From Paracoccus suum (GTDB lineage: Bacteria > Pseudomonadota > Alphaproteobacteria > Rhodobacterales > Rhodobacteraceae), in contig NZ_CP030918.1 in the NCBI RefSeq assembly GCF_003324675.1, forward strand, positions 2,520,001 through 2,552,000: a stretch of 32,000 nucleotides of DNA, written 5' to 3'. The notes under the pieces were generated by a model that was not told where the DNA came from, made no database searches, and saw only the letters and a program-made list of their open reading frames with translations. Position 1 is the stretch's first letter, and each line of letters starts with the position of its first letter. Of this stretch, positions 65-26,396 are shown in pieces. The position numbers were made by a program, and so were the translations under genes.

Positions 65-87
65 AGTTGCGCCGCTTGATTTCAGGA

Positions 88-161: not shown

Positions 162-271
162 GCGCGCCCTGACTAAGGTCCCGCGCCGCGCCGGTCAAGC
201 GCACGGGCAATCTGATCCGCAAATCGCACCAGCGCGTTTCCCGACGAAATACGCCGCGCACCTGCGACGCG

Positions 272-691: not shown

Positions 692-804
692 GGTCGCAAG
701 TTATGGACCGGGGCGAGGGCGGACAAGGGCGCAGGGCCTGCCGGACGCTGCGAGCCTTCCGGCATCCACTGGTGCCGGGCGGCCTCATCCGCTATCCCTT
801 CGCC

Positions 805-2518: not shown

Positions 2519-2524
2519 CGCCGC

Positions 2525-3082
2525 ATGGCCGAGACTGCCGAGCATACCAGCCTGCCCTTGCCCCGGATCGACGGACCGGTGCGGCTGCTAATCGTCTGCG
2601 CGCCCTACTACCGCCGCATCGCGGACGATCTGATTGCCGGCGCGCGTGCCATGGCGGCCGATGGGGGCGCCTCGGTTGACCTGATCGAGGTGCCGGGGGC
2701 GCTGGAAATCCCGCCCGCAATCGCGATCGCAGCGCGGTCTGAGCGCTATGATGGCTATGTCGCGCTTGGCTGCGTCATCCGCGGCGAGACGACGCATTAC
2801 GACACTGTCTGCAATGACAGCTCGCGCGGGCTGACGGAACTGGGGCTGGCCGGATTTGCCATCGGCAACGGCATCCTGACGGTCGAGAACATGGACCAGG
2901 CCGCTGTGCGCGCGGCACCGGACGGCCAGAACAAGGGTGGCGGCGCGGCCGCGGCGGCGCTGCATCTGGTGGCGCTCGGCCGCCGCTGGCAGGGCCAGTC
3001 CGGGCGTCCCGACCGACGCCCGGCGGCGCACCGCGACCCGTTCCGCTTGGCGGTCGATCTGGACGGAAGCAGCCGTTCATGA
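2525..3082 (+). CDS. ribH: 6,7-dimethyl-8-ribityllumazine synthase
   Basis: Motifs VPGALEIP, YDGYVALGCVIRGETTHYDTVCN and GNGILTVEN. Position between ribB and nusB is conserved synteny. The last ~30 codons form an Arg/Pro-rich tail overlapping the nusB start (ATGA at 3079-3082). Confidence 0.9.
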   Translation: MAETAEHTSLPLPRIDGPVRLLIVCAPYYRRIADDLIAGARAMAADGGASVDLIEVPGALEIPPAIAIAARSERYDGYVALGCVIRGETTHYDTVCNDSSRGLTELGLAGFAIGNGILTVENMDQAAVRAAPDGQNKGGGAAAAALHLVALGRRWQGQSGRPDRRPAAHRDPFRLAVDLDGSSRS

Positions 3083-3576
3083 GCCAACCCGACCAGTCAG
3101 AGCGCCGAGCCCGCATCCAGCGGCGCAGCAGCGCCGCGCGCATCTACGCCGTGCAGGCCCTGTTCCAGATGGAGGCCGCCGGCCAGTCGGCCGAGCGTGT
3201 CGAGACCGAGTTTCGCCACTGGCGCATCGCCGCGCCCGACGCCGATGGGCCGGGCATTGAATCGCCCGAGGCGGACGAAGAGCTGTTCGGCCGCATCCTC
3301 GACGATGCTGTTACCTGGCAGGCGCGGATCGACCAGATGACCGACCGTGCGCTCGTCGACCGCTGGCCGCTCGACCGGATCGACCCGGTCCTGCGCGCGG
3401 TGTTCCGTGCAGCTGGCGCCGAGTTGATGGCGGCCAAGGCGCCGTCACGCGTGGTCATTTCGGAATACATGCGGGTGGCCGAGGCATTCTTTGCCGAGGG
3501 CCCCGAAGTCAAGCTGGTGAACGCAGTCCTCGACCAGGTCGCGCGCGCCGCCAGGCCCGAGGCATTCGGGGCCTGA
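3079..3576 (+). CDS. nusB: transcription antitermination factor NusB
   Basis: 165 aa. The SAARIYAVQALFQME opening and the ribH-nusB synteny are typical of NusB. Confidence 0.88.
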   Translation: MSQPDQSERRARIQRRSSAARIYAVQALFQMEAAGQSAERVETEFRHWRIAAPDADGPGIESPEADEELFGRILDDAVTWQARIDQMTDRALVDRWPLDRIDPVLRAVFRAAGAELMAAKAPSRVVISEYMRVAEAFFAEGPEVKLVNAVLDQVARAARPEAFGA

Positions 3577-3729
3577 TCGGCCCGCCGCCTTGATCTGCCC
3601 ATTCCCCCGCTCGACTGCGTTTCTGACGTGTGGCGTCCCCTGGTCACCAATCAAGTCCATTCCGACGTGTGCTGCTCGCCTCTTCTCTGGCCACTGGCGC
3701 GTCATCCCGCCGCGGGCTAAGCCGCCGCA

Positions 3730-4641
3730 ATGCTGATCGTTCTCGCGACATTGCTGCCGGATCTTGCGCTGATCGCGCTGGGAGGCTGGCTGGTGCGGCG
3801 CACTGGCGCCGAGGTGTGGCGCGGAATCGACCGGATCAATTTCGACCTGCTGCTGCCGGCGTTGCTGTTTCTGGCGGCGGCACGGCGGCCTGCCTCGCTC
3901 GCGGATCTCGGCACGATAGGTTTGTCGATCTGGGCGCTCGCGGGGATCGGGCTGCTGGCGGGCATGCTGCTGATGCCGAACGCCGGCCCGCAGGCACGGC
4001 TGGATTTTGCCGGACAGTGGCAAACCTGCTGGCGCTTCAGCACGCCGCTGGCCTTTGTTGCCGTCGCCGCGTTCCCGGACCGGGTCCAGGGCTTGATGGG
4101 GGTCGCGGTCGGGGCAGGGGTGCCGATCTCGAATCTGCTGGCGGTGACAGTGCTGTCGCGTGGCGGCGGCCTTGGTTTCGGGGCGACGTTGCTGCGGGTG
4201 GCGTTGAACCCGTTCCTGCTGGCCAGTCTTGCCGGCCTCGCGGTCGGCCTGCTGGACCTGCATCCACCGGGGCCGTTGATGGCCATGGCGCAACGCCTTG
4301 CCGATGCGGCGATCCCGATGGCGCTGCTGTCAATGGGCGCGACCCTCGATTGGCAGGCGCTGCATCGCCCGCGCCCCCGCGAGGCAGCTTTCGTCGCGAT
4401 CAAGCTGCTGGCTCTGCCGCTTGCGGCCTTGGTTCTGGGATTGGTACTCGGCCTGCCGGCCGATCAGCGCGCGGTCCTGTTGCTGATCGCGGCGTTGCCG
4501 ACCGCGCCTTCGGCGCATGTCCTTGCCGGGGTCTTTGGCGCCAACCCGCGCCCTGTTGCCACTCTGATCGCGCAGGGCACCATCGCGGCCGCACTGACGC
4601 TGCCCGTCTGGATGGTGCTGGCACTGCATTTTCAGGGATGA
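3730..4641 (+). CDS. AEC (auxin efflux carrier) family transporter
   Basis: 303-aa polytopic membrane protein. The N-terminus MLIVLATLLPDLALIALGGWLVRR and repeated hydrophobic segments are typical of AEC/membrane transport family proteins. Confidence 0.75.
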   Translation: MLIVLATLLPDLALIALGGWLVRRTGAEVWRGIDRINFDLLLPALLFLAAARRPASLADLGTIGLSIWALAGIGLLAGMLLMPNAGPQARLDFAGQWQTCWRFSTPLAFVAVAAFPDRVQGLMGVAVGAGVPISNLLAVTVLSRGGGLGFGATLLRVALNPFLLASLAGLAVGLLDLHPPGPLMAMAQRLADAAIPMALLSMGATLDWQALHRPRPREAAFVAIKLLALPLAALVLGLVLGLPADQRAVLLLIAALPTAPSAHVLAGVFGANPRPVATLIAQGTIAAALTLPVWMVLALHFQG

Positions 4642-4906
4642 GGCGGCGGGAACCGATGCAACCGTGTCGGCGCGAAATCCCGAGAGCCTGGCGTACCAGG
4701 TGGGCGCCGGGTAACGAGGCCAGGACCTCGCCAGAGCCAGCACCCTCGGAATATTTATAGGCCACTGGGAAAAGGCCGAACACGAGAAGAGCAGAAACCC
4801 GCCTGCGACCAGAAATAGGACGGCACGCCCTGTCGATCAAGGGGTAGCCGCGATACGGGCCGTCCGCGGGCTTGCACGATGTTTACGTTTCGTTCAATTT
4901 GGCGCC

Positions 4907-5386
4907 ATGCCAGTGACCGCAGCAAACCCCGTCCCCGACGACCCGGCGCTGCCGCGCGAGGCCGGTCAGCGCCTTGCCCGCGGCGTCACCCGGTTGATGC
5001 GCGAGATGCATCACGCCGCGCTGACCGAATTCGTCCCGATCCCGGGCCTGCGGGTCGATGTCATGGCCCTGACCCCAGCGGGCGAGGTCTGGATCATCGA
5101 GTGCAAGAGCTGCCGCGCCGATTTTCTGGCTGACCGAAAGTGGCAGGGTTACCTTGAGTGGTGCGACCGCTTTTTCTGGGCCACCGACTGCCATTTCCCG
5201 ACCGCTCTGCTGCCTGAGGAAAGCGGCCTGATCGTGGCCGATGCCTATGCCGCCGAACTGGTTCGCCCGGCGCCCCTCACGCGGCTGGCGGCGGCGCGGC
5301 GCACGCGTCTGACGCGCGACTTTGCCCGGGTCGCCGCTTGGCGCGTGCAGGCGATGCTGGATCCTACGGGTTGGTCGGGAAGCTAG
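4907..5386 (+). CDS. mmcB: MmcB family DNA repair protein (PD-(D/E)xK nuclease fold)
   Basis: Motif VDVMAL...VWIIECKSCRADFLADRKWQGYLEWCDRFFWA matches the D...E-x-K core and the conserved KW..Y...CD.F motif of MmcB-like proteins as I recall them. Confidence 0.7.
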   Translation: MPVTAANPVPDDPALPREAGQRLARGVTRLMREMHHAALTEFVPIPGLRVDVMALTPAGEVWIIECKSCRADFLADRKWQGYLEWCDRFFWATDCHFPTALLPEESGLIVADAYAAELVRPAPLTRLAAARRTRLTRDFARVAAWRVQAMLDPTGWSGS

Positions 5387-5400
5387 GGCAGGGGGCCAGT

Positions 5401-5622
5401 TCAGCCCTTTCGGCCCTTTGGACCGCCCTTCGGCCCCGCGCTCAGCGCTTGTGCCGCCTCGATCGCGGCCTGCAGTTCCTCGACGATCTCGGCCGCCTCC
5501 TCGGGTTCGAAGTCGAGCGGCAGTTCGATCCCCTCGCCCTCCACATAGATTCGGACCATGCCCTGGTCGGTCGGACCGATCTGCAGGCTGGCAGAGATAT
5601 CGCTTTCGCGGTTGATACCCAT
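5401..5622 (-). CDS. small acidic hypothetical protein
   Basis: 73-aa ORF (MGINRESDISASLQIGPTDQGMVRIYVEGEGIELPLDFEPEE...) with gene-like composition. The overlapping ORFs on either strand are low-complexity. No domain recognised. Confidence 0.55.
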   Translation of the reverse strand: MGINRESDISASLQIGPTDQGMVRIYVEGEGIELPLDFEPEEAAEIVEELQAAIEAAQALSAGPKGGPKGRKG

Positions 5623-5690
5623 CTGGATTTCTTTCCCGGTGCTGTCGATATTCTGGTAACGGGACGTTTAAGCCGGGGCAAGCGCGCCCC

Positions 5691-5719
5691 TTGCATCGCC
5701 TGCGCAGAGGCGGTAATGC
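5691..5719 (+). promoter_or_regulatory. candidate sigma70-type promoter for tRNA-His
   Basis: TTGCAT (5691-5696), a 17-nt spacer and TAATGC (5714-5719), ending 10 nt upstream of the tRNA 5' end. Pattern match only. Confidence 0.3.
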
Positions 5720-5729
5720 CCGGTCCCGT

Positions 5730-5806
5730 GCCGCCTTAGCTCAGTTGGTTAGAGCGCTAGATTGTGGATCTAGAGGTCCCCCGTTCAAACCGGGGAGGCG
5801 GTACCA
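5730..5806 (+). tRNA. tRNA-His (anticodon GTG), alphaproteobacterial type; integration target of the element
   Basis: GCCGCCT-TA-GCTC-AGTTGGTTA-GAGC-G-CTAGA-TTGTGGA-TCTAG-AGGTC-CCCCG-TTCAAAC-CGGGG-AGGCGGT-A-CCA, 77 nt. It has G1:U72, discriminator A73 and T at genomic position -1, so no encoded G-1. Confidence 0.92.
5757..5806 (+). repeat. attL: 50-nt direct repeat (tRNA-His from the 5' anticodon-stem strand to CCA)
   Basis: CTAGATTGTGGATCTAGAGGTCCCCCGTTCAAACCGGGGAGGCGGTACCA recurs at 15468-15517 with one mismatch (A5789 versus G15500). Flanking bases differ on both sides of each copy. Confidence 0.9.
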
Positions 5807-5812
5807 ACAAAA

Positions 5813-6325
5813 TCAGTAAGTTAGACCATCTTTGTCCACCTGCGCCAAAGCTTGTGTAAGCGATGCGTAAGCAGATGCGGGGGTCTCGGCACTGATGCCG
5901 CCGAATCCATCGGATGCCGCAGGCACGCCGAGGAATTTGTGCGTCACCCCTAGCCCATCGGTTCCGATCCTCGACCGCAGCAGCGTGAGCATCGGGAAGG
6001 GCTGGCGAGGCTTGCTCAGCCGCAGGAGTAAGGTGCCGCCAAGGTCGGGCAGGGTGAGCGGCTGCACCTTCACGGCGTCCGGGATCACGATGACCTTGAG
6101 GTCTGACGTATAGATGCCGGTGACACCCTGAAAGCTGCTTCCGTCGCTGGCGCTATCGAAGACGGCATAGCACCCGCAGAGGTACTCAAAGCTAAAGTTG
6201 CCGTCCGCCTCGACTGTGGCAGCTCCTTGAGCGTCCCGCATGACATGGAACAGCGCCGCAGGCTGACATGCGGGATTTTGTCGGGCAGCCCGCCACGCGG
6301 CCATGAACAGACGTGATTGCATCAC
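5813..6325 (-). CDS. hypothetical protein, last gene of the head operon
   Basis: 170-aa ORF. Start is GTG 6325 or ATG 6322, overlapping the portal stop (GTGATG). Its stop lies 7 nt from the end of attL. No recognisable domain. Confidence 0.55.
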   Translation of the reverse strand: MMQSRLFMAAWRAARQNPACQPAALFHVMRDAQGAATVEADGNFSFEYLCGCYAVFDSASDGSSFQGVTGIYTSDLKVIVIPDAVKVQPLTLPDLGGTLLLRLSKPRQPFPMLTLLRSRIGTDGLGVTHKFLGVPAASDGFGGISAETPASAYASLTQALAQVDKDGLTY

Positions 6326-7377
6326 TCGCCCCCGGAGTTGATCGGCTTCGACGCGCCTTCGGGCAGGTCAACGTTGTCCCAGCCGACCAGCGACATGGCC
6401 GTGGCGAGGGGCACCCCTGACTGCACGAGGCTACTCACCGACCGCGCCCGGCCCGCCGTGTCAGCCGTGGCGAGGTCTTGCAGGCCAAGCCGGGTCACCC
6501 CGATCTTGCGGGCCAGTTCGGGCGTGATTGCCCTCGCCAGCGGGTCTAGCGTCAGGGTCGTGAACAAGCGCAGGGCTTCTCGGGATGCGCCAGCGTTGCC
6601 CGACGCCGTGAACAGGCTTGGCGGAACCCCCGCAGCCGCAAGGACACGCTCGTGAAGGTCGCGGGTCGTCTCGACCAGAGGGACCCCGGACAGATCGGGC
6701 GTGAGTTCGACCCGCTTAAACTCTGACCGGCTGCCGCCCGTGTGATGCCCAAAGTCCTCTTTCGACCCCACGACCGCCAGCGAGCCGTGCCTTAGCCCCT
6801 GTAGCGCCGTGGTCTTTTGGTCCTCAGGCACCGTGCTTGGAATGGGCAGCAAGCCCTTGCCCGTATAGGGCAGCGCGGATGACACGGTTTGCTCAAGGTC
6901 AGCCAGCAGGGAGGCTGACAAGCCCATCAGCGCGAGGGGGGACCTTCCCCGCCACGGGCTTTCCGGGGCGGCGTTGATCGTCAGCTTGACCACTTCATCC
7001 TCAAGGGCGCGCACCGTCTTGCTACCGCCCGGCGTCGAGAGGGCGAGGCTGTAACGGCCCCCGGCATACTCCGACCAGCTAGCCGCCCTCCGCAGGGTGA
7101 GGCGGGACTGGTCCAGCCCGATGTGCCAGAGGCTTTCGCCCCGGAAAAACAGGTCCAGCCCTACAGCCGCGAGAATGTCGGGTGTGAGGTCGTCAACCGG
7201 GTCGGGCACCAGCATGGCGAAGGACCGCGACCAGATACCAGCGCAGGTGCCCACGGTCGCGGACAGGCTGGTCGTGTCGCCAGCCACGGCAATGCCTCGC
7301 CGCGCGTCGATGTACTGCGCCGTCACCACGGGCGTGGATCGCGTCTCGACCTCTGGGGTCTGCCAAGGCCACCTCAT
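6322..7377 (-). CDS. phage portal protein (HK97 family-like)
   Basis: 351 aa. The C-terminal region ERVLAAAGVPPSLFTASGNAGASREALRLFTTLTLDPLARAITPELARKIG matches the conserved portal motif (..FGVPp.ll....e....f...tl.P....i..el..kl). Start overlaps the upstream stop (ATGA). Confidence 0.8.
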   Translation of the reverse strand: MRWPWQTPEVETRSTPVVTAQYIDARRGIAVAGDTTSLSATVGTCAGIWSRSFAMLVPDPVDDLTPDILAAVGLDLFFRGESLWHIGLDQSRLTLRRAASWSEYAGGRYSLALSTPGGSKTVRALEDEVVKLTINAAPESPWRGRSPLALMGLSASLLADLEQTVSSALPYTGKGLLPIPSTVPEDQKTTALQGLRHGSLAVVGSKEDFGHHTGGSRSEFKRVELTPDLSGVPLVETTRDLHERVLAAAGVPPSLFTASGNAGASREALRLFTTLTLDPLARAITPELARKIGVTRLGLQDLATADTAGRARSVSSLVQSGVPLATAMSLVGWDNVDLPEGASKPINSGGE

Positions 7378-7940
7378 CGCCGCACCTCGCTAGCCAGAAG
7401 CGCCCCCGCCCCGGACCCGTAAAACAGCCCCTGAACCGCCTCGCGCGTCAGGGTCACGTCAGCCATGGTCTGACTGCGAAACTCGCGCCTCTGGGGCTGG
7501 TGGATCAGTTGATAAAGCGTCAGGTTCGCCGCCGCCCGCCGGACACACTCCGGGATGCTCACCGGGGCAGGGGTAGGGGCTTGCGTCAGCCTGTAGAGAG
7601 TGCCGCCGCCAAAGGTGCAGCGCCCGTGCATGTAGCGGCAGGTGTCGGGCTGGAACGTCTGTGACCCCTCGTCCCACCTCTCGGCCGTAACAATCGCCGG
7701 ATAGGGAAACCTCGGCCACACGTACGTCATCGGCTCGCTGGCTTCGACCAGTACTGTGCCAGCGGCGGTAGCCCTGTAGCAGCGTCCCGTGAAGTTCTCG
7801 ATCATCTCCCACGACGCCCCCAGGAACGCTGTGGCAAGGTCCAGAGATGCCCCAGCCTCTAGGGCAATGTCGCTGGCGGCAGGAACCGCCGGAACCGGGC
7901 CGGGCGAGAAATCGACTTGCAGAAACGTAATGCCGTGCAT
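7374..7940 (-). CDS. hypothetical phage protein; possible gp6-like head-tail connector/adaptor
   Basis: 188 aa. The segment WEMIENFTGRCYRATAAGTVLVE...WPRFPYPAIVTAERWDEG resembles the (e..TGR.l..qt....l......L...Pv.sv..v) pattern of gp6-like connectors. This is a weak call from memory. Confidence 0.45.
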   Translation of the reverse strand: MHGITFLQVDFSPGPVPAVPAASDIALEAGASLDLATAFLGASWEMIENFTGRCYRATAAGTVLVEASEPMTYVWPRFPYPAIVTAERWDEGSQTFQPDTCRYMHGRCTFGGGTLYRLTQAPTPAPVSIPECVRRAAANLTLYQLIHQPQRREFRSQTMADVTLTREAVQGLFYGSGAGALLASEVRR

Positions 7941-7944
7941 GGGG

Positions 7945-8538
7945 TCACCAGATGTAATTCCGCCACGCGGGCGGGCGTGTCGGGTTCGTGTCCAGCGCCC
8001 GCAACTCGGCCCGCGATTGTTCGTAGGCGGGGCGGGTTACGAGGGAGAGTTCGAACAGCACAAGCTTGAATAGCTGCCGGATCATCACGCGGGGGTTGCC
8101 GGGTTCGGGCACCAGCTTTTCCGCATCCGGCACCACGTCCGAAGGGGGCACGCGGAATCCGGGTGACACCCCCGCAATCAGGCCCGCCCCCAGCATCGCC
8201 AAGGCGTCGGTGACGTGGGATGCGCGGTCTGCGCCCTCGGGGATCGAGGCGACAAATTCAAGGAAGTCATCTGTGTCCTGAAGCGTCAGGGAACCTGCCT
8301 TGCGACTGGCGAGAGGCCGGTTGAAGTCGTGTCCGAGCAGCAGGTGAATGTCGCGTGTGAGATCGCCAATGGCAAAGCCGAAGGCCCCCGGCTTGATCGT
8401 CTCTTTGCGGACGGTACCCCGGTCACTCATGGTCGCGAGCGAGTTATAGGGGAAGCGCCCGAAGATCGTCGGACGCCCCCCTTGCTGCCGCACTTCCAGC
8501 CCCTCAACCGGATAGACGTGAGATATCGCCCCGGTCAT
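7945..8538 (-). CDS. HK97 family prohead (capsid maturation) protease
   Basis: 197 aa. GRFPYNSLATMSD, ETIKPGAFGFAI, LLLGHDFNRPLAS and GVSPGFRV are typical of HK97 prohead protease (S78/U35). Lies 4 nt downstream of the capsid gene. Confidence 0.85.
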   Translation of the reverse strand: MTGAISHVYPVEGLEVRQQGGRPTIFGRFPYNSLATMSDRGTVRKETIKPGAFGFAIGDLTRDIHLLLGHDFNRPLASRKAGSLTLQDTDDFLEFVASIPEGADRASHVTDALAMLGAGLIAGVSPGFRVPPSDVVPDAEKLVPEPGNPRVMIRQLFKLVLFELSLVTRPAYEQSRAELRALDTNPTRPPAWRNYIW

Positions 8539-8542
8539 CGGA

Positions 8543-9802
8543 TCAGGCCCGATCCTGAACGTTGGTCAGCGCGAGGAAGTGGGTCGCAACCCGCTGCACG
8601 ATCACGTCCGCGAAGGCGAAAGTTGTGATCGCGATCTTGCCCGTCTTGGACTCGCTGTAAGGATCAACCAGAATCTCAGGCGCGCCCCAGAGCAGGATGT
8701 GCGCCAGCCCCTCGGGGGCACCTACGACAACCGTGCTGCGACCCTTTCCAGTGGCATCCCGCGCTGCGGTCGGGCTGACTTGGGGCGAGAAGATCGGGCT
8801 TCCAAACGCGGCCTTCAGGCGGTCGAAGGACGATACGGCCGTACCGCTCACCAGATCGTCGGCGGTGGTCTGCAACAGCACAGGCGCGCCAGCGATCTTT
8901 ACCTTGTCCGGTCCCGCCAGCCCGGCAGTCTCCCACAGGCTCACAGCCGCCGCCAGCAGCGTACCGAACGATGCCTTGGCACCGACATTCTGCACCCGGC
9001 CCGCGTCTGTCAGACGCTTCAGAATCCCGACCGGCTCAAGGCCGCCCTGTCCTTGGAAGGCCACCCGGTCCAGTTCCGCCGAGATCAGCCCCGCCAGATC
9101 GCGCCGCAGCGTGTCCTCCAACGCCGGGTTCTCTTTCGTCGCCTGCCGCGTGATGAGGTAGCGCGCCGTCACCGTCCGCATGACGGCAGCTTGGGTCAGG
9201 GTGGCGATATTCTGGGCATCGGTCCCGGCACCCTCGGCAACCCAAGTCGGGGTCGCGCCAGCGGTAATCTCGGGATAGGTCGGACGGCCAGTGACATTGC
9301 GAATATCGAAGCCAAAACGTTTGGCGGCGCTATCAGCAAAGATGCGTTCCAGCGGCCCGATCACCGGACGCGAAGTCAGGTTGTCGTCGGTGGCAGTCGT
9401 CACCACGGCGTCGGCGCGGGTTTCCAGCGCAGCCCACGGAACGATGACGCCACCTTGCTTGGCAGCACCCTGCCGCTTTTCGAGTTCCTGCGATACCTCG
9501 GCTTCTCGGCCGTCTAGCATCCGGCCGGACTCGGCACGTTCGACCACGCGGGCGAGGCTGAACGCCCGGCACTCACGTTGGAAAGCGTCCTCGCTTTTGT
9601 CCTCGGCCCGGATCGTGGCCCGGTCGCTTTCTTCCGTGAGAACGGCCGCGCGATATTCGACTTCGCCCCGCTCGTACGCGTCGGCGAGGGTACGAAGCTC
9701 GGCAATCTGGTCGTCAGACGGATCGCCTTCGGCTTTCTGAATCGCCGCCATTTTTTCGCGGCGGTGGCTTTGGGCAAGTTGGATGCTCTGGGACTTCAGC
9801 AT
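8543..9802 (-). CDS. phage major capsid protein, HK97 family, with N-terminal delta/scaffold-like domain
   Basis: 419 aa. The charged coiled-coil N-terminus (~120 aa, ...AELRTLADAYERGEVEYRAAVLTEE...) is followed by an HK97-fold body (..VTARYLITRQATKENPALEDTLRRDLAGLISAELDRVAF.G.G, ..ILVDPYSESKTGKIAITTFAFADVIV). Confidence 0.9.
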   Translation of the reverse strand: MLKSQSIQLAQSHRREKMAAIQKAEGDPSDDQIAELRTLADAYERGEVEYRAAVLTEESDRATIRAEDKSEDAFQRECRAFSLARVVERAESGRMLDGREAEVSQELEKRQGAAKQGGVIVPWAALETRADAVVTTATDDNLTSRPVIGPLERIFADSAAKRFGFDIRNVTGRPTYPEITAGATPTWVAEGAGTDAQNIATLTQAAVMRTVTARYLITRQATKENPALEDTLRRDLAGLISAELDRVAFQGQGGLEPVGILKRLTDAGRVQNVGAKASFGTLLAAAVSLWETAGLAGPDKVKIAGAPVLLQTTADDLVSGTAVSSFDRLKAAFGSPIFSPQVSPTAARDATGKGRSTVVVGAPEGLAHILLWGAPEILVDPYSESKTGKIAITTFAFADVIVQRVATHFLALTNVQDRA

Positions 9803-9814
9803 GGTCGTAATTCC

Positions 9815-10210
9815 TTAGATGACGATGACAGGGGCGGGGCTGGGGGGCTGGTCGGGTGCGGGAAAGCCCGCCGCCGCCAAAAAGGCTTCGCGGCCGGCTA
9901 TGGGGGCGCGGGCGTGTAGGGTTGAACGGGGCCGCTGGGGTCGTGCTGCCCGGCGCTCGGCAGCCGTCTTGCGGCTGTGGCAGCCGGGGCAGAGCCATTG
10001 CAGATTCGCTGTGTCCCACGGGCTGCCGCCGGTCTCGGCAAGCTTCCGGCGGCTAACGATGTGGTCGCACTCGCCATCCATGCCGGTGAAGCCGTGGCAA
10101 TGCTCGCAGCGGAAGGCCGCCCGCAAGGCGACGAGCGCGCGTACGTCCCGACGCCATGCGCTCAGTTGCAGGATGCGTTGTGTGCGGGGCAGAGGATCGC
10201 GGCGGGCCAT
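9815..10210 (-). CDS. HNH endonuclease (terminase-associated type)
   Basis: 131 aa. CEHCHG...CDHIVSRRKL...NLQWLCPGCHSRKT is the CxxC...DH...N...CxxCH HNH signature. Start overlaps the TerL stop by 1 nt. Confidence 0.85.
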   Translation of the reverse strand: MARRDPLPRTQRILQLSAWRRDVRALVALRAAFRCEHCHGFTGMDGECDHIVSRRKLAETGGSPWDTANLQWLCPGCHSRKTAAERRAARPQRPRSTLHARAPIAGREAFLAAAGFPAPDQPPSPAPVIVI

Positions 10211-11760
10211 CAGATCACCTCCACCGAATAGGTCGGAGCGACGGCCTCGCGGGCTTCCAGCAGCGCGCTACAGGCCAGCACGAGTGCTTGGGCGAGGTCG
10301 ATGCGGCTCATGCGGCTGGCCTTGTCCAGTTGCGCCGCGCCAGTTGTGGCAACCTTCACGTCGCTTTCGGCCAATGCGCCTTCCAAAAGTTGCGACCGTT
10401 GCAGCTTGAGGCTGCCCGCCAAGAACAGCTTTCGCGTCGCCAGAATGTCGGCGTTGCCGTCGCGCGGGCCACTGCCCCGGAAACGAGTTTTCCAGCTAAG
10501 CCCGGCACGGCGCAGCGCGGTCCATAACTCGCTTGAGCGGTATCGGTCAGAACTCACCGATACGACTTCATGCGGCCCGACGCGCTTGACCAGTTCCGCC
10601 AGAAACTCGGGAATGTCGGTGACGCTGCCGGAGGTCAGTATCAAGTCGCCGTCCCGCAGTCCGCGCAGGTACAAGTCGCCGCAGCCGTCCCGTCGCCCAC
10701 GCTCGGCCAGATCAATCGGCTGGTCGGGGAAGGCTGCCAGCAGCCGGACCACGCCGGACTCGTACGCGATTACCGCCGCCGACTGCGCCGCAGACCCGCC
10801 CAAATCGAGGCCGACCCAGCACCGTTCACCCTCAACCGGCTTAACCTCCGGATCGTAGGCGGCGGTTAGCTGGTCGTACGGGATCAGCAGTTCGCGGGCC
10901 GGGGTAAGCCGGGCATTGAGGTTCCATGCCAGAAACTCGCGCGTTGCCCCCGAAGCCTTTGCCTTGTCCCACGCGTCACGCATGAAGCGTTGGCTTTTGA
11001 TCGCCCCCATGCCGGGGTTGCACTTCGCCCAGACCGCAGGGTCGCCGGGGTCTTGGTCGCGCTCAAGTCCGTAGCAGTGGGCCACAACCCCACGCGGCGG
11101 CTCGTCCAGCAATTCGTTGAACAGTCGGCTTGCGCCTCGGGTCCCGGTCGCCAAAAGACGGCCGTTCTCGATGGCGAGGGCGTCCATGAAGTTATCGAGC
11201 AGCCCCGCGTTTCGGTCAGGCAAAAGGCCAAGTTCATCGACGATTGCCACATTGAGGCTGGCCCCATGCCCCGACAGTTTCGAACCGGAATATACGTCGC
11301 AGACTGCCCTACCAATTCGCAGGCTGCCCGGCTGGGGATGCGTGACAATTCTCGCTTCACCTTCCCGACCAACCGAAATCAGCAGGTCCATCGCACTGGT
11401 GAAAATGAACATGGCATGGCGGGAAGTCGGGGCGGCCAGTCCGACCTTGCAGCAAGGAATGGCAATCGGGCTATCTTCCAACATGAAGCCCAGAAGCAGA
11501 CAGGCCAGCACGAAAGACTTGCCGTTTTTCCTTGGCGTCGAAAACAGTGCCATCCGGTAAAGCGGATCAGCACCATCACGGGCAAGCACGTCGCGGACAA
11601 ATGCTCTCTGGAACGGCAACAGCGTTACGGGTTCACCCCGCCGTGGCCCCGCTGGAAATACGAATGAGGATTCCAGCCACGCGCAAAACCCGTCAACCGG
11701 ATCGGTGGCGGGCTTCGGTTTTCTCAGCAGCCGGATTTTGCCAGCCATGGGAGCCCTCAT
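10210..11760 (-). CDS. terminase large subunit
   Basis: 516 aa. Walker A-like STPRKNGKS, Walker B LNVAIVDELG and a C-terminal RNase H-like nuclease segment CWVGLDLGGSAAQSAAVIAYE. GGAGGG lies upstream of ATG 11760; ATG 11748 is an alternative start. Confidence 0.9.
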   Translation of the reverse strand: MRAPMAGKIRLLRKPKPATDPVDGFCAWLESSFVFPAGPRRGEPVTLLPFQRAFVRDVLARDGADPLYRMALFSTPRKNGKSFVLACLLLGFMLEDSPIAIPCCKVGLAAPTSRHAMFIFTSAMDLLISVGREGEARIVTHPQPGSLRIGRAVCDVYSGSKLSGHGASLNVAIVDELGLLPDRNAGLLDNFMDALAIENGRLLATGTRGASRLFNELLDEPPRGVVAHCYGLERDQDPGDPAVWAKCNPGMGAIKSQRFMRDAWDKAKASGATREFLAWNLNARLTPARELLIPYDQLTAAYDPEVKPVEGERCWVGLDLGGSAAQSAAVIAYESGVVRLLAAFPDQPIDLAERGRRDGCGDLYLRGLRDGDLILTSGSVTDIPEFLAELVKRVGPHEVVSVSSDRYRSSELWTALRRAGLSWKTRFRGSGPRDGNADILATRKLFLAGSLKLQRSQLLEGALAESDVKVATTGAAQLDKASRMSRIDLAQALVLACSALLEAREAVAPTYSVEVI

Positions 11761-12550
11761 TCATGTTAAGCCCTCCATGGCTGTGAGTTTCGTTCAGGTC
11801 GTCCTAGTGCGCTGTAGATAGGGGAAGCCAACAACAACCCCGGATGAACGCAAACCCCCTTCTTCTTCCGGGCAGGGGTCCCCTAGTCCCCTAGGTCGTT
11901 CCGTAATGCGTGACGAAGTCCAGTTCGGCTGGTAGCGCAAACATGTTGCACAAGTGCATTCACCCTTGGGGTGGTGAGGGCGGGTCGTCCAGTTCCCGCC
12001 CCCACCTTTGATCCCGAACAAGGAGAGTCTTACTCACAGCATTTCGGAGGTCGTGACACAAGTCATGCAGCCGCAAATGGGTCACTTCCAGCACCACTAT
12101 CGTAGAGGCAATATGCGGGCCGTGGAGCGGGGGCTTTCGTTTTCCGCATCCAACCCTCGGCCAGATACCGGAATGGCCGTCAGCGGGGCAAATTCGGGGG
12201 TCTCTGGACTCGCCCTGCGTTCCTGCTCAGCCAACTCAGCCGCTTGCACGAATACAGACGGATTGTCGGGATCATGCAATGAAGCGTGGGCGGGGGGTTT
12301 TGGGGGGTACTTCCCCTATAGCCTGATACATATTCGTATTCGAACCCACGTCTCACTTTCCTGAAATTCCTTAAGCTGAAATCCTCTCTGCCCGAAAGCC
12401 CAAGGCCGCAGGCCGCAGGGGTGACTACTCTAATGTCCCAACCTCCCTGTCCCCTGACAAGAAGAGTAGTAACCCTGTATCTACTATAACATTGGATACG
12501 GATAGGTAGGGACATTTCGGCTGACGGCCTGCCAGCCCTCGCAATGCCTG
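11761..12550. other. 790-bp ORF-free, lower-G+C structured spacer between the regulatory and head modules (candidate cos/ori/ncRNA region)
   Basis: No convincing ORF in six frames. Contains GC-rich hairpins, palindromes, tandem short repeats and G-tracts (coordinates in findings). Confidence 0.5.
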
Positions 12551-13243
12551 TCATTCATTTCGGTGGTGATAGTCGAAAGGCTGCCGCAGACCTTTCCCCG
12601 AGTTCTTGCTCTGCCATCGGGTGAGGTAAGCGTCCGCCACAGCATTGGGCCACCGTCGCATGACGCTGACGGAGGGATAGCGATAGAAGCGCACCGTGCC
12701 GGGGGTACCGTATGCGTCACGCTCAAACTCAATCCTGGCCTTCACCCCGGCGGCGTAGAACGGCCACTCGCCCAACGCATCCGCGAAGATCGTCAGTTGA
12801 TGCCCTTCCGGCCACGTCTCGGCTAGGCCCTTGAGCATTCCCCACTTGGCGTTGCCCAGCGTCCGGCCGGTCTTACTTTCGAACATCTTCCGCATGATGT
12901 TCGCCATGTGTCGGTGGCTCATACCCACCGGCTTCTCGCCGGGAAGCATGACCCGCAGGGCCAGCATCCTCACCGGAGTGCCGTTCGCGCCCTTTCGTCC
13001 GGTGTCCAGCCGTTCGATTGGAGCCTGCTGCGATAATCGCGAAACTGTCTTAACCTCGACCTGCAACCGAACGGCCCATTCTTTCCGGGGAAGCATGGCC
13101 CATATTCGACCATCAAGTTCGAAGGGGTGCGCGGCAACTTCAGCCGCGATCAAATCGCAGAAAGCTTGTAACCGCTTGGATGGCTGTGCCGTGTCGGGAA
13201 TGTCCACTGGCCGGCCCAGCGGAATTACAGACATAATGGACAT
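12551..13243 (-). CDS. hypothetical protein (orphan; possible DNA-binding/replication or regulatory function)
   Basis: ORF 12551-13555. I place the start at ATG 13243 (MSIMSVIPLGRP...), which has AAAGGGG about 8 nt upstream. The first 104 codons of the long ORF overlap the upstream gene and are Arg/Gly/Ser-rich. No domain recognised. Confidence 0.55.
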   Translation of the reverse strand: MSIMSVIPLGRPVDIPDTAQPSKRLQAFCDLIAAEVAAHPFELDGRIWAMLPRKEWAVRLQVEVKTVSRLSQQAPIERLDTGRKGANGTPVRMLALRVMLPGEKPVGMSHRHMANIMRKMFESKTGRTLGNAKWGMLKGLAETWPEGHQLTIFADALGEWPFYAAGVKARIEFERDAYGTPGTVRFYRYPSVSVMRRWPNAVADAYLTRWQSKNSGKGLRQPFDYHHRNE

Positions 13244-13328
13244 GGATTTTGCCCCTTTAATCGGGGGCAGGCCCTTGCAGTTGCCGTATCGGTCAGCTAA
13301 TTTTGAGCCTGCCAGTTGGATGGTATCG

Positions 13329-13365
13329 GAGGGGGTCGGCGTTTGCGGCGCGGCCCCCTCTTTTT
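13329..13365 (+). terminator. intrinsic-terminator-like hairpin oriented for the plus strand
   Basis: GAGGGGG (13329-13335) pairs with CCCCCTC (13354-13360), with extra inner pairs, followed by TTTTT (13361-13365). On the minus strand it is preceded by A5 and not followed by a T-run. Confidence 0.4.
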
Positions 13366-13368
13366 CAT

Positions 13369-13785
13369 TCAGCTTTCGTGAGAATCGGAGTCTCGGCGAG
13401 CCTTGAATGCATCGACCTGTTCTTTGACGTAGAACCGCTCTGACTTGCCGCCCTTCACTCGTACGAAGGCCCTCAAGTCCGGAAACGCCACCGGATCGAC
13501 CCCAAGAATTTCGCCCGCTTCGGCCTCGGAATACGTTTCCGCGTTCTGGAGCCATTTGGGCTTTCTCCCGCGCCGGAAGTTCAGTGCGCCCGTGGCCCGA
13601 TACGCGTCGAGGTCGCTCACCTTATATCGAACCGTAGGCCCGATTTGAACATGCGGAACTTTCTGGCTCTCGCCACCCTCGGCGGCATGAAGTCGGTCAA
13701 CCGACAGCCATCTGGGCGAAATACCTAGATAGGCAGCAGCCGTTTTCGTATTCAACAGGTCATTCGGATCGCGGCGGGGGTTCAT
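13369..13785 (-). CDS. tandem excisionase/AlpA-type helix-turn-helix protein
   Basis: 138 aa with two HTH_17-like units: LLNTKTAAAYLGISPRWLSVDR...VRYKVSDLDAYR and TYSEAEAGEILGVDPVAF...RFYVKEQVDAFKARR. Start overlaps the upstream stop (ATGA). Confidence 0.7.
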   Translation of the reverse strand: MNPRRDPNDLLNTKTAAAYLGISPRWLSVDRLHAAEGGESQKVPHVQIGPTVRYKVSDLDAYRATGALNFRRGRKPKWLQNAETYSEAEAGEILGVDPVAFPDLRAFVRVKGGKSERFYVKEQVDAFKARRDSDSHES

Positions 13786-14006
13786 TTCTGCACCTCCGGA
13801 CCAATCAGATTGTTCACTATATACGCGTCAATGTCGGCGGCGCGATAACGAATCATTCTCTCGCCCAACCGAACGAAGGGCACTTTCGGCTGTGTTCCGC
13901 TCTGACCTGCGATCATGCGGTCATTGGCCAGCCACCAAGCGGTTACGCCCAATCTTGCCGCTGCGGATTTTGCATTAATTAGGTTCGACGACGACACGGT
14001 TTCCAT
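13782..14006 (-). CDS. AlpA/excisionase family helix-turn-helix protein
   Basis: METVSSSNLINAKSAAARLGVTAWWLANDRM...VPFVRLGERMIRYRAADIDAYI fits the AlpA/Xis HTH pattern. ATG 14006 has GAAGG 8 nt upstream. The longer ATG 14081 start has no SD and would run through a structured region. Confidence 0.7.
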   Translation of the reverse strand: METVSSSNLINAKSAAARLGVTAWWLANDRMIAGQSGTQPKVPFVRLGERMIRYRAADIDAYIVNNLIGPEVQK

Positions 14007-14096
14007 CACGGATGCCTTCAAATGGAGGACTCGAACCCCCGCCCGGCTATCCCGGAAAGGGGAGGACCTACCGACCTCCATGTCGTGCGGCTTTGG

Positions 14097-15329
14097 TTAA
14101 CTTGGATCGCGATTGGTGGGAATGCAAGGGGGGCGCGATAGGCGGTCTATCTCGGCACCAATCCTCGCCATTGGCCCTCGTAAACGCTCGTGATCCGAGA
14201 TCACATAACCGGCCGTAACCGAACCCGCCCCAGAGGCCGTGGAATGGTTCAGCAGTTTCGCGAGAGTGAACCCGCTTAGGTCCAGTGCGTCCGCCAGCGA
14301 CGCGAAGGTTCTCCGCAGATCGTGCGCGCCGATATCTAGCCCGGCCTCGGCCCGCAGGTGCGCCCACGACTTGCGCGGATCGGGGACCGATCCTTTTGGA
14401 CCCGGCTGCCAGAACACGTGCTGGCCTTTGCTGTCCGCTCGTTGCGCCACAAGTAACTCCACGATCCGGGCGGTCAGCGGCAGGGTGTGCGGCTTGTAAT
14501 TTTTTGGCTCGGGCACTCGCAGGGTTCCAGCGTCGAAGTCGATGTCTTTCCACGTTAGGCCGACCGCCTCCCCCCGGCGTAGGCCGGTCCGGACAAGCAT
14601 CTCCACGTATCTGCCGAACACCCTGTGATCGACCAGACCGCTTGCCTGCATTTCCAGCACCGTCGCCATGAAGGCGGGAAACTCTCCGGGTCGGACGACG
14701 CCTTGCTTGCGGCTGGGCCGGTGCCAACGCTTGAGGGCAGAGAGTCGTGCGGCCGGATTCATCCGCAGGGTAGGGGTGCCGTCAGGTCGCGCGGTATGTG
14801 CGGCAGCATGGGCATAGATCACGCGGAAGTACCGGCAGGCCCCCGCCGCAACGGTAGGGCCGTTCTCGCACGTGATCTTGTCGAAGCGGGCCACCAGCAT
14901 GGCCGGGCTGACAAGTCCAAGTTCCCGACCGAGCCAGTCTCCGAAATACTTGGCGATATGGTATCGCGCTTGCTTGATTGTGCTGTCCTTGAGTTGCCGT
15001 CCGGTGACGTACAGGTCCAGCGCACCGCTCAGCGTGATGGTCCGCGACTTCGCCTCGGCCCTCTCCGCGTTGCGGTCACGGCCTTGTACCATCGCCGCCA
15101 ACTCGACCTTCGCCAGTTTGCGCGCCTGCTCGACCGTCATTGTGCTGACAGGGCCGATGGTAACCCGCCGCGACCTGCCGTTTAGGCGGCTCTGGACGAT
15201 GTATGCTTGTGAGCCGCCGCAGGACGTTCTCACGCCAAATCCGCTCACGGAGGCGTCCCAAGTGAACGTCTGCCCTGTAGCGGGCACCGGCAGAGCCAGA
15301 ACAATAGATTGATTCAGTTTGACGGCCAT
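14097..15329 (-). CDS. int: tyrosine-type site-specific integrase (P4-like, DUF4102 N-terminal arm domain)
   Basis: 410 aa. N-terminus FGVRTSCGGSQAYIVQSRLNGRSRRVTIG. Catalytic elements GLRRGEAVGLTW, HDLRRTFASLA and LLNHS...TAGYV. Lies adjacent to attR. Confidence 0.92.
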   Translation of the reverse strand: MAVKLNQSIVLALPVPATGQTFTWDASVSGFGVRTSCGGSQAYIVQSRLNGRSRRVTIGPVSTMTVEQARKLAKVELAAMVQGRDRNAERAEAKSRTITLSGALDLYVTGRQLKDSTIKQARYHIAKYFGDWLGRELGLVSPAMLVARFDKITCENGPTVAAGACRYFRVIYAHAAAHTARPDGTPTLRMNPAARLSALKRWHRPSRKQGVVRPGEFPAFMATVLEMQASGLVDHRVFGRYVEMLVRTGLRRGEAVGLTWKDIDFDAGTLRVPEPKNYKPHTLPLTARIVELLVAQRADSKGQHVFWQPGPKGSVPDPRKSWAHLRAEAGLDIGAHDLRRTFASLADALDLSGFTLAKLLNHSTASGAGSVTAGYVISDHERLRGPMARIGAEIDRLSRPPCIPTNRDPS

Positions 15330-15467
15330 TAGATGTTTCCCGCGTGTAAGCAGATAGTAACCAATCCTCCTGAATCACGGCCAATCGCAACGCAAGCTAA
15401 AAGTCAGCATTTGCACGGGTTTTCAATTAGCACCAACCAACGCCAACCCTAGCAAACCGACTATTTT

Positions 15468-15517
15468 CTAGATTGTGGATCTAGAGGTCCCCCGTTCAAG
15501 CCGGGGAGGCGGTACCA
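15468..15517 (+). repeat. attR: displaced 3' copy of tRNA-His (50 nt, 49/50 identical to attL)
   Basis: CTAGATTGTGGATCTAGAGGTCCCCCGTTCAAGCCGGGGAGGCGGTACCA. There is no tRNA 5' half upstream of it. Confidence 0.9.
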
Positions 15518-26390: not shown

Positions 26391-26396
26391 ACCGCA

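Follow-up and report, generated by a model that had tools for sequence, protein, structure and literature searches.

A tRNA-integrated head-gene island in Paracoccus suum and its relatives: a probable family of capsid-forming, tail-borrowing satellites in Rhodobacterales

What kind of element carries genes for a phage head and packaging machinery and none for a tail? We addressed this question at a tRNA-His locus of Paracoccus suum, within a 32,000-nucleotide stretch of DNA (the window). The original prediction had proposed a satellite resembling capsid-forming PICIs (cf-PICIs), an interpretation that our analysis supports. We consider it probable that the locus is an intact capsid-forming, tail-stealing satellite, working like cf-PICIs and representing a separate, smaller lineage.

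Boundaries and gene content of the element

Two 50-nt direct repeats bracket the element as predicted, 9,711 bp apart from start to start (Table 1), and chromosomal genes of ordinary kind lie on both flanks. The proposed drop in G+C is also present: values of 0.57-0.67 inside compare with 0.68-0.70 in the left flank (positions 1-5000), the right flank being itself lower (0.63-0.68). The att sequence also ends a metagenome element, L002. A search for an empty attB found none, and circular overlaps were seen in no contig; L001 and L002 both stop within att, at breaks in the assembly. Among the contigs there was no metagenomic sign of excision, circular forms or packaging. This result and the missing attB count against a satellite.

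Table 1. Features of the P. suum element, in window coordinates
Feature	Position	Strand	Size	Evidence or note
tRNA-His(gtg)	5730..5806	+		ARAGORN; Rfam tRNA 66.9 bits
tRNA-proximal att repeat (3' 50 nt of tRNA-His)	5757-5806	+	50 nt	Repeat family D1
Head-to-tail stopper / head-closure protein (SPP1 gp16 type)	5813..6325	-	170 aa	AF2 + Foldseek
Portal protein	6322..7377	-	351 aa	PF04860 E = 9e-10; phrog_12
Head-to-tail adaptor with inserted beta domain	7374..7940	-	188 aa	AF2 pLDDT 90.9 + Foldseek
Prohead serine protease (S78)	7945..8538	-	197 aa	PF04586 E = 1.4e-15; phrog_80
HK97-fold major capsid protein	8543..9802	-	419 aa	PF05065 over residues 171-403; phrog_617
HNH endonuclease	9815..10210	-	131 aa	PF01844; phrog_589 E = 2.6e-17
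Large terminase subunit TerL (HK97-like)	10210..11760	-	516 aa	phrog_9 E = 4.8e-49; PF20441
Low-G+C spacer/variable region	11761..12550	.	790 bp	G+C about 0.57
Conserved non-coding block upstream of terL	11815..11896	-		Core AGGGGACCCCTGCCCGG at 11884-11868
Orphan protein with winged-HTH-like segment	12551..13243	-	230 aa	Homologues in six other elements
HTH_17 (excisionase/AlpA-like) DNA-binding protein	13369..13785	-	138 aa	PF12728 E = 4.2e-6; phrog_66
Small HTH-like protein	13782..14081	-	99 aa or shorter	PHROG excisionase, E = 0.026 only
Tyrosine integrase, P4/CP4-57-type architecture	14097..15329	-	410 aa	PF00589 + PF13356 (Arm-DNA-bind_3); phrog_1 E = 1.5e-38
Orphan att repeat, copy of tRNA-His 3' part	15468..15517	+	50 nt	49/50 identical

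The minus-strand ORFs are those listed earlier, and HMM searches of Pfam and PHROGs upheld the names given to the integrase, HTH, TerL, HNH, capsid, protease and portal genes. Packing is tight, head-module junctions being overlaps or gaps of at most 12 nt. Contrary to the earlier claim, the array is not uninterrupted: it is broken by the spacer upstream of terL, which holds no credible minus-strand gene. This spacer contains inverted repeats (12419-12516) and may include a weak plus-strand ORF (12008-12364); the equivalent position varies among relatives.

The capsid protein is 100% identical to P. suum DRW48_12405, and its family profile matches the PDB capsids 8gta and HK97 gp5 (1if0). Its N-terminal ~170 residues, outside the capsid-fold match, would form a delta/scaffold domain, giving the protein its own scaffold. 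The 131-aa HNH protein is the packaging partner of HK97-type terminases. The portal scores 38.7 bits against PF04860, just below the 39.1 cut-off, and portal lengths span 336-358 aa across the family.

Two AlpA/Xis-type HTH proteins had been proposed beside the integrase. The 138-aa protein bears this out; it also has a weak TerS match confined to its HTH part (phrog_57, E = 0.006). The 99-aa protein is weakly backed by its own profile match and occupies a conserved slot adjoining int, with same-position tblastn matches in 11 of the first 23 loci. The 230-aa ORF occupies the distal portion of an open frame of 334 aa, the family alignment favouring the 230-aa start. Its gene lies at the opposite end in a Tateyamaria element (L004), and its match in L012 is weaker. 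HTH matches in this family are weak and come from other members, with none for the window's own protein; we regard it as a candidate replication initiator or regulator.

Tail, lysis, repressor, primase and TerS genes had been reported missing, and none has a match in Pfam, PHROGs or NCBIfam. Two of these absences weigh against a satellite: there is no TerS, which HK97-type cos packaging normally needs, and no replication gene was recognised. Could the locus instead be a miniature complete virus, with tail or lysis functions hidden in small ORFs that lack annotation? One example would be a very short, podovirus-like tail made from the variable genes close to the tRNA end. ORFs without assigned function do remain, including the 230-aa protein and, in relatives, variable small ORFs after the stopper and extra proteins beside the head genes. 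However, the unassigned proteins of the P. suum element are all HTH-type, and only 6 nt separate the stopper gene from the tRNA, leaving no gene beyond it. About 2.3 kb of non-head coding capacity is too little for a tail, receptor binding and lysis, and PHROGs gave no tail or lysis matches. We judge such a virus the least probable of the explanations considered.

Recurrence across Rhodobacterales

We found about 75 clusters of major capsid proteins (MCPs) related to the window capsid (45-78% identity), many of whose members are whole contigs of 9.6-10.9 kb. Most clusters carry no source name; wherever one is given, it is Rhodobacterales/Paracoccaceae or a Pseudomonadota MAG without further classification. 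The head-gene order TerL-HNH-MCP-protease-adaptor-portal is kept at about 37 related loci in other genera; none of the 17 loci from Rhodobacterales genomes, the 20 from IMG/VR or the Logan contigs departs from it. Many Rhodobacterales genomes, MAGs and metagenome contigs carry the ~10-kb architecture at tRNA genes, a recurrence that the original prediction had suggested looking for. Ends defined by a tRNA and direct repeat could be mapped for 16 elements, at His, Asn, Tyr, Pro, Ser, Thr and Arg tRNA genes. Size is constrained: the 15 mappable elements from other genomes measure 10.3-11.2 kb and that of P. suum 9.7 kb. The set of head and packaging genes is complete and self-contained in these elements, which encode no tail, no lysis and no recognisable replication function. 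Some relatives have additional genes for 176-178-aa and 179-216-aa proteins of no assigned role beside the head genes, and small ORFs after the stopper vary. More distant relatives in other lineages (MCP 26-29% identity) are also head-only, about 10-12 kb long and arranged MCP-protease-neck-portal; one has a Replicase gene and another a Phage_HCP and a tail-terminator-like gene.

This recurrence bears on whether the locus is a decayed prophage, the immobile head module of an HK97-like temperate phage whose tail, lysis and replication genes were deleted. The lack of those genes would fit, and relatives that have clearly decayed are known: the Cypionkella copy (L017) carries an MCP fused to the portal end, and the Thermohalobaculum copy (L046) breaks off after the MCP. 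Against decay, many genera have elements of 9.7-11.2 kb with this gene set in this order, bounded by intact att repeats and spread over seven different tRNA species; dN/dS is 0.04-0.37 across all six head and packaging genes, indicating purifying selection; and the window genes are full length relative to the family, none being truncated. Nor did a tailed parent emerge. No homologue lies within a 35-45 kb tailed prophage, longer contigs being tandem unrelated islands, and tail genes are absent near every family locus. Among 50,697 phage records there was no DNA match to the element. The best phage MCP is 25% identical and comes from a canonical siphovirus whose genes are ordered differently, tblastn with the portal gave no match in phages, and the best phage TerL matches, from the HK97 group, reach 26% identity over 92% of the query. 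The collections searched hold no close relative among sequenced phages and no related full-length prophage. A remnant is therefore largely refuted by the family survey and very improbable, and the claim of a complete element stands.

Neck proteins and a candidate packaging site

The protein formerly called connector-like has a predicted adaptor fold (AF2, Foldseek). Its top PDB matches are the RcGTA neck (6toa_C, E = 1.9e-4, TM 0.58; 6te8_B), followed by the necks of phages Milano, T5, DT57C and 7-7-1; all of the best matches are phage or GTA neck adaptors. Relatives also have a short 115-aa form lacking the insert. The 170-aa orphan is the ORF described earlier, now with a stopper fold, and the distance from its stop to the tRNA end is 6 nt, where 7 nt had been given. 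It has no family match at the sequence level. Foldseek places it with the P1 connector (E = 5.6e-4), SPP1 gp16, the T1 stopper, the Douge connector and the RcGTA virion, and its named BFVD matches are mostly 'SPP1 head-tail adaptor / head-tail joining' proteins. Confidence in the model is moderate (pLDDT 74.5, TM 0.4-0.6), which we count against a satellite. An N-terminal RAARxNPA motif is common to the stopper and the 126-151-aa protein after the portal in other elements. Neck proteins diverge fastest, at 39-66% identity for the adaptor and at most 50% for the stopper, which is undetectable by tblastn in most loci. Adaptor and connector genes of cf-PICIs are reported to diverge likewise (10.1101/2025.02.11.637232).

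These neck proteins also help to weigh an autonomous producer of tail-less particles, whose DNA-filled heads would transfer DNA or serve the host without ever being tailed, for example through natural-competence uptake of freed capsids or DNA or through a domesticated GTA-like function. Capsid-mediated gene transfer is common in Rhodobacterales (RcGTA), and no helper phage was identified for the P. suum element, a result that also weighs against a satellite. Spontaneous release of tail-less capsids is moreover known for cf-PICIs (10.1101/2025.02.11.637232). However, adaptor (dN/dS 0.16-0.29) and stopper are kept under purifying selection, and their sole known role is as a tail-docking neck. 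The element also appears to be selfish and mobile, not domesticated, because it has an integrase, att sites and a patchy distribution over multiple tRNAs. We therefore consider this alternative unlikely, though less so than a remnant or a miniature virus.

A motif within the spacer is conserved, 31 of 36 family loci having it upstream of terL; it matched 33 times on the forward strand and never on the reverse in 1.19 Mb counted over both strands. We guess from sequence that this GGGRACCC-containing site is a candidate cos or packaging-recognition site; it could alternatively be a late-operon control site, promoter or operator.

Relation to known systems and a proposed life cycle

The closest system is the cf-PICIs (prototype EcCIEDL933; 10.1101/2022.09.08.507074; 10.1101/2025.02.11.637232; SatelliteFinder cfPICI model, PMC10085698). 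Both groups integrate site-specifically, carry an integrase and AlpA/Xis-type HTH proteins, and encode their own HK97-type capsid, protease, portal, head-tail adaptor, connector/stopper, HNH and TerL. Both lack tail and lysis genes, their head genes are distantly related to phages, and neck proteins are the fastest-evolving of these. Proteobacterial cf-PICIs share the capsid-protease-portal-connector order (10.1101/2022.09.08.507074). The family differs in size, about 10-11 kb against about 15.4 kb, and TerS and primase/Rep, core components of cfPICI, went undetected; a possibly distinct lineage of smaller size had been suggested earlier. Its terL-hnh pair precedes the head genes, whereas cf-PICIs place hnh-terS-terL after them, and its adaptor sits between protease and portal, unlike in cf-PICIs. 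A further difference is that family proteins score under or close to curated HMM cut-offs, most of them being annotated 'hypothetical'. A smaller head, plausibly T=3, is predicted for the family, compared with the T=4 shown for EcCIEDL933. Its hosts are Alphaproteobacteria (Rhodobacterales), where the literature searched reports no satellites.

Other systems share fewer traits. Satellite phage P4 resembles the element in the type of its integrase, in integrating at a tRNA and in packaging a genome of some 11 kb into a small head. P4 has a primase-helicase and makes that head from the capsid protein of its helper P2 via Sid, whereas capsid, portal, protease and terminase genes are all present in our element. 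RcGTA has its own tail, lacks an integrase and att, is inherited vertically and fills its heads with random host DNA; our element is mobile and tail-less, with a conserved candidate packaging site. RcGTA (PDB 6TOA/6TE8/6TBA) is likewise alphaproteobacterial with a small HK97-fold head, and its neck is the adaptor's best structural match; a virion chain also matches the stopper (rank 15), with no similarity detectable at the sequence level. A GTA-like particle as tail donor, raised earlier, found no specific support. The Streptomyces satellites MulchMansion and MiniFlayer (PMC10690885) also encode encapsidation machinery and lack key replication genes, but have actinobacterial hosts, unrelated sequences and experimentally known helpers. 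Marine VEIMEs and PICMIs (PMC9618062; PMC10803314) are similarly small, tRNA- or site-integrated and phage-parasitising. VEIMEs, however, have no major capsid protein gene and enter the full-size heads of their helpers as concatemers (PMC9618062), and PICMIs lack capsid genes.

We infer the following satellite life cycle. On induction, the P4-type integrase and a small Xis/AlpA-like HTH protein would excise the element from the tRNA-His 3' end. TerL and HNH would cut the conserved GGGRACCC-containing site just upstream of terL and fill a small capsid, encoded by the element, with a single unit-length genome; 9.7-11.2 kb would suit a T=3 head, or a T=4 head that is not completely filled. Adaptor and stopper would close the portal and present a docking surface, where the tail of a co-resident or co-infecting phage could dock to yield an infectious particle. 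Helper or host would supply lysis and perhaps replication and TerS functions; the P. suum element presumably has such a helper. Together, these observations reveal a widespread family, not described before, of ~10-11 kb elements in marine Rhodobacterales; the family most likely spreads by borrowing the tails of other phages.

Anatomy of the tRNA-His element

The element is bracketed by direct repeats: the last 50 nt of tRNA-His recur 9,711 bp away at 49/50 identity, as the original prediction had read them. The minus-strand gene list drawn up there was recovered by ORF calls, and HMM searches confirmed the integrase, HTH_17 protein, TerL, HNH protein, capsid, protease and portal. Two details were corrected. 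The gene array is interrupted, since 790 bp of it hold no credible minus-strand gene, and the gap between the stop of the last ORF and the tRNA is 6 nt instead of 7 nt. With these minor corrections the observation is confirmed, and the interpretation placed on it is supported computationally.

Chromosomal genes border the element, with MmcB and a transporter on one side and a glycosyltransferase cluster on the other. G+C is 0.57-0.67 inside against 0.68-0.70 in the left flank, and is lowest (0.57-0.60) in the half nearer the integrase; the right flank, at 0.63-0.68, is itself below the left. Outside the element, a gene for a 222-aa holin-like protein borders a low-G+C stretch (26000-29000, 0.59-0.62) with several small minus-strand ORFs.

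Features of the window element, its surroundings and related loci (L-numbers denote related loci or contigs)
Feature	Location	Strand	Evidence or context
tRNA-His(gtg)	5730-5806	+	ARAGORN
Integration repeats	5757-5806; 15468-15517		
170-aa protein	5813-6325	-	public annotation DRW48_12385: internal-Met start, 142 aa
Portal	window element	-	PF04860 0.4 bits under Pfam cut-off; backed by phrog_12 and family synteny
188-aa protein	7374-7940	-	
S78 prohead protease	window element	-	HMM searches
HK97-family capsid protein	window element	-	HMM; 100% identical to Paracoccus suum DRW48_12405
HNH protein	window element	-	HMM searches
TerL	window element	-	phrog_9, E = 4.8e-49
Stretch without credible minus-strand gene	11761-12550		
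Conserved motif, GGGGACCCC	11884-11868		108-124 nt upstream of terL ATG
Interleaved 13-nt inverted repeats	12419-12431/12463-12475; 12432-12444/12504-12516		low-G+C spacer
230-aa protein	12551-13243	-	
HTH_17 protein, 138 aa	window element	-	E = 4.2e-6, 27.4 bits against cut-off of 27
Tyrosine integrase, P4-type	window element	-	PF00589 and PF13356 (Arm-DNA-bind_3); phrog_1, E = 1.5e-38
222-aa holin-like protein, outside element	25722-26390	+	Phage_holin_3_6 (PF07332), E = 2.8e-8
570-aa recombinase, both at tRNA-Tyr	L005:3550-5262; L008:3310-5022		adjoins tRNA
Extra gene pair	L005:8809-9983; L008		between HNH and MCP
Extra gene pair and 152-157-aa protein	L011:2006-2950		upstream of terL
Decayed copy, Cypionkella aquatica	L017:10001-11243		MCP joined directly to C-terminal part of portal
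Decayed copy, Thermohalobaculum MAG	L046:8570-11994		truncated after MCP, then response regulator
Integrase island	L038:7906-12138		directly behind element; AEP-primase (PriCT-2) protein
Integrase island	L039:14761-19506		directly behind element; 1067-aa metallophosphatase/STAND-NTPase protein
Distant relative	L045		10,333-bp contig; PF03090 Replicase gene
Distant relative (also L049)	L048:2301-2756 and 5102-7353		Phage_tail_terminator_9 homologue, Phage_HCP head closure; IS21-type insertion (rve and IstB) between HNH and MCP
Distant relative, Afipia	tRNA-Arg		11,165-bp element

The head module is of HK97 type, comprising an HK97-fold major capsid protein (MCP), an S78 protease, a PF04860 portal and an HK97-like TerL with an HNH protein. 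Its gene order is non-canonical, with the portal behind MCP, protease and adaptor. The MCP profile matched only 8gta and HK97 gp5 among PDB sequences, and we infer that the protein carries an N-terminal delta domain. A 99-aa ORF gave only a weak excisionase PHROG match, and the AlpA profile PF05930 had no match in the element.

We detected no TerS, primase, helicase, repressor, tail or lysis genes in the window element, and none of its ORFs matched a replication gene in Pfam, PHROG or NCBIfam. There is also no gene-sized room for TerS between the conserved site described below and terL. The 138-aa protein weakly matches phrog_57 (E = 0.006) within its HTH, and the HNH protein matches phrog_4581, a TerS-HNH PHROG; TerS function might reside in an HTH protein or in the HNH protein, or come from a helper. 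The 230-aa protein, which has a winged-HTH-like segment, is a candidate for initiating replication or for a regulatory role. Six other elements encode homologues, with a weaker match in L012 and the gene at the opposite end in the Tateyamaria element L004; others carry different winged-HTH proteins in their variable region. The interleaved inverted repeats sit just 3' of the 230-aa gene stop and could be terminator-like, or an origin or regulatory structure. An Rfam scan of the element returned the tRNA only, and promoter and terminator scans gave nothing above background.

No terminal overlaps indicative of circular or excised forms were found in 20 whole contigs. Overlaps of 12-13 nt in L001 and L002 were rejected as evidence of circularity since they lie inside the integration repeat (att) and are assembly breaks. 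An empty attB, sought by exact junction search of metagenomes, was not found.

Predicted neck proteins and a conserved site upstream of terL

Pfam, PHROG, NCBIfam and PDB sequence profiles returned no match for the 188-aa, 170-aa and 230-aa proteins, and structure prediction resolved the first two. An AlphaFold2 model of the 188-aa protein, built from 44 homologues (pLDDT 90.9), has its best PDB matches in the neck of the Rhodobacter capsulatus gene transfer agent, RcGTA (6toa_C, E = 1.9e-4, TM 0.58; 6te8_B) and in neck structures of phages Milano, T5, DT57C and 7-7-1. Because these best matches are neck adaptors, the protein is predicted to be a head-to-tail adaptor, carrying a beta-domain insertion that a 115-aa version in relatives lacks. 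The 170-aa protein retrieved only itself in a word-index homologue search, and its model (pLDDT 74.5) is based on 10 homologues from an exhaustive phmmer search. It matches the P1 connector, SPP1 gp16, the T1 stopper, the Douge connector and an RcGTA virion chain, along with many BFVD entries named 'SPP1 head-tail adaptor / head-tail joining / stopper'. By predicted fold, it would be an SPP1-gp16-type stopper or head-closure protein. An N-terminal RAARxNPA helix, conserved in the family alignment, is contained only in the 170-aa version with a GTG start.

The adaptor and stopper folds suggest that the element encodes the proteins that would close the head and present a tail-docking surface. 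Among the head genes, divergence across the family is greatest in those for the neck proteins. This divergence parallels the situation in capsid-forming PICIs (cf-PICIs), whose tail compatibility is set by adaptor and connector genes (10.1101/2025.02.11.637232).

Upstream of terL, 31 of the 36 loci covering the region share the motif AGGG(G/A)ACCC(C)TG. A TAYCGGAG-like block lies ~25 nt beyond it, and a second copy of GGGAACCC often accompanies this block. Near-variants occur in three of the five loci without the exact motif (L001, L007 and L008). In 1.19 Mb of sequence, both strands included in that total, it had 33 matches on the forward strand and none on the reverse. Conservation of this site among elements whose proteins are only ~45-50% identical implies that it is functional. 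We consider it a candidate cos or packaging-recognition site because it lies just before terL, has partial dyad symmetry and accompanies an HK97-like TerL and HNH pair; alternatively, it may be a late-operon operator.

A family of head-only elements in Rhodobacterales

Capsid homologues at 45-78% identity form ~75 clusters. Most are unnamed metagenome sequences, and the named sources are Rhodobacterales genomes (Tateyamaria, Sulfitobacter, Roseovarius, Albibacillus, Mameliella, Antarctobacter) or Rhodobacteraceae/Pseudomonadota MAGs. Strikingly many homologues reside on whole contigs of 9.6-10.9 kb. Carriers with complete genomes include P. suum, Tateyamaria SN6-1, Sulfitobacter dubius and Antarctobacter heliothermus. 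We examined synteny in contigs encoding homologues, species-representative genomes (17 Rhodobacterales loci) and IMG/VR (20 loci), and found that the ~10-kb architecture recurs in the order int - small HTH - variable genes - TerL - HNH - MCP - protease - adaptor - portal - stopper-like - tRNA. Besides tRNA-His, the targets are tRNAs for Asn, Tyr, Pro, Ser, Thr and Arg. The 15 elements of other genomes with a mapped tRNA and distal partial repeat measure 10,322-11,167 bp versus 9,711 bp in the window, and the metagenome contig L002 terminates in exactly the window's tRNA-His att sequence.

In L005 and L008, a different recombinase of 570 aa lies beside the tRNA, and the rest of the family carries a 390-440-aa integrase at the tRNA-distal end, which indicates exchange of the integration module. 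Some members bear an extra gene pair (~1.2 kb in total) for a 176-178-aa protein and a 179-216-aa protein with the conserved motif 'FVPLP..DGTPKK..PRQW'. Neither these nor the 152-157-aa optional protein matched Pfam or PHROG; possible roles are as further neck proteins or in tail completion. By BLASTP, the 157-aa protein resembles neither the 178-aa protein nor the terminator-like protein of L048, and we rejected the optional genes as tail-terminator homologues.

We rejected a decayed prophage because the family is conserved and dN/dS is low, which supports the original prediction of a complete element. Purifying selection acts on all six head and packaging genes, with values of 0.04-0.20 in the two pairs that are not saturated and none above 0.37 overall. 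The att repeats are near-identical, and a check for truncation against full-length homologues showed that window gene lengths match those of the family. Tail and holin genes are absent from the window element and from the surroundings of ~37 related loci. The window element is unlike the decayed copies in Cypionkella and Thermohalobaculum. We also looked for homologues within a full tailed prophage in IMG/VR contigs of 21-51 kb, and rejected this possibility for their readable parts, which are tandem islands unrelated to the element (integrase with AEP primase; integrase with STAND NTPase) or other genes; the readable part of the 51-kb contig, a minor share, holds a DNA-methylase-like gene and an unidentified ORF. 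Tandem integrase islands beside elements suggest that the tRNA sites are integration hotspots.

Phage relatives are remote. Among 50,697 phage records, the window element has no DNA match and its portal no tblastn match. Its capsid is at best 25% identical to that of Roseobacter phage CRP-406, a canonical 29-kb siphovirus (order TerS-TerL-portal-capsid-tail), and HK97-group terminases share 26% identity with its TerL. Distant capsid relatives (26-29% identity) are themselves head-only integrative elements of ~10-12 kb with the unusual MCP-protease-neck-portal order. The deeper relatives come from Afipia and from metagenome contigs of no assigned taxon, and a Desulfovibrio MAG gives a partial match to MCP and protease. 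Since these relatives are head-only and share the order, the Rhodobacterales family looks like a single branch within an older clade of such elements.

A proposed capsid-forming satellite model

The best-supported model is a capsid-forming satellite. Int/Xis would excise the element, its own TerL and HNH would cleave cos and package a unit length into its own small head, and the adaptor and stopper would close that head. A tail would then be acquired from a helper, whose lysis functions would also be used. Elements packaged as unit lengths into small heads of fixed capacity would be expected to vary little in size, as these do. HK97 has a 39.7-kb genome and a T=7 head; T^1.5 scaling from these values gives ~11 kb for T=3 and ~17 kb for T=4. 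The T=4 head of a cf-PICI accommodates 15.5 kb (10.1101/2025.02.11.637232). Taken with the scaling, this makes a T=3 head plausible for the family.

Identity with an RcGTA-type gene transfer agent was rejected given the integrase, att repeats, variable tRNA targets and absence of tail genes in the element. Such agents are nearly universal in Rhodobacterales, and the RcGTA adaptor ranks first among structural matches to the element's adaptor, by only a slight margin over those of phages. The family might be satellites of these agents, with necks docking GTA tails, and would then be selfish elements parasitising a domesticated virus; and/or it might build isometric T=3 HK97-fold heads, which to our knowledge are not known for tailed-phage-type particles. 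We regard this proposal as improbable.

Functionally, cf-PICIs are the closest known system. The SatelliteFinder cfPICI model lists 11 core components, requires at least 9 and forbids tails and holins. Accepting fold-level calls and a borderline AlpA/MerR-type regulator, 9 of the 11 functional categories are present: integrase, HNH, TerL, portal, prohead protease and HK97-type capsid were all found, with no tail or holin, and the neck is assigned by predicted fold. TerS and primase/Rep are absent. The family shares the capsid-protease-portal-connector order of proteobacterial cf-PICIs (10.1101/2022.09.08.507074), but is smaller, has its packaging genes elsewhere, occupies another host class and bears no detectable sequence relationship in the databases searched. 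We therefore file it, by functional categories, as a new lineage or variant that works like a cf-PICI and not as a demonstrated member. VEIMEs and PICMIs were rejected because both lack capsid genes (PMC9618062, PMC10803314), and a P4-like identity because the element has its own capsid. Charybdis elements are unrelated.

Tail-stealing capsid-forming satellites have so far been documented experimentally in Gammaproteobacteria and Firmicutes. The family is a coherent and apparently undescribed lineage in marine Alphaproteobacteria, and our literature search returned no paper linking phage satellites with Rhodobacterales, Rhodobacteraceae or roseobacters. It is about one-third smaller than cf-PICIs, with no recognisable TerS or Rep, and its tightly constrained size predicts a very small self-encoded head. 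Because its genes are mostly annotated 'hypothetical', profile-based satellite finders may well miss it. If functional, these elements would add to the means of horizontal transfer available to roseobacters and Paracoccus. They would also provide a naturally minimal set of parts for HK97-type head assembly and for packaging by HNH and TerL, consisting of seven identified proteins (TerL, HNH, capsid, protease, adaptor, portal and stopper) and one candidate cis site. The question of the tail donor, GTA included, would then be directly testable.
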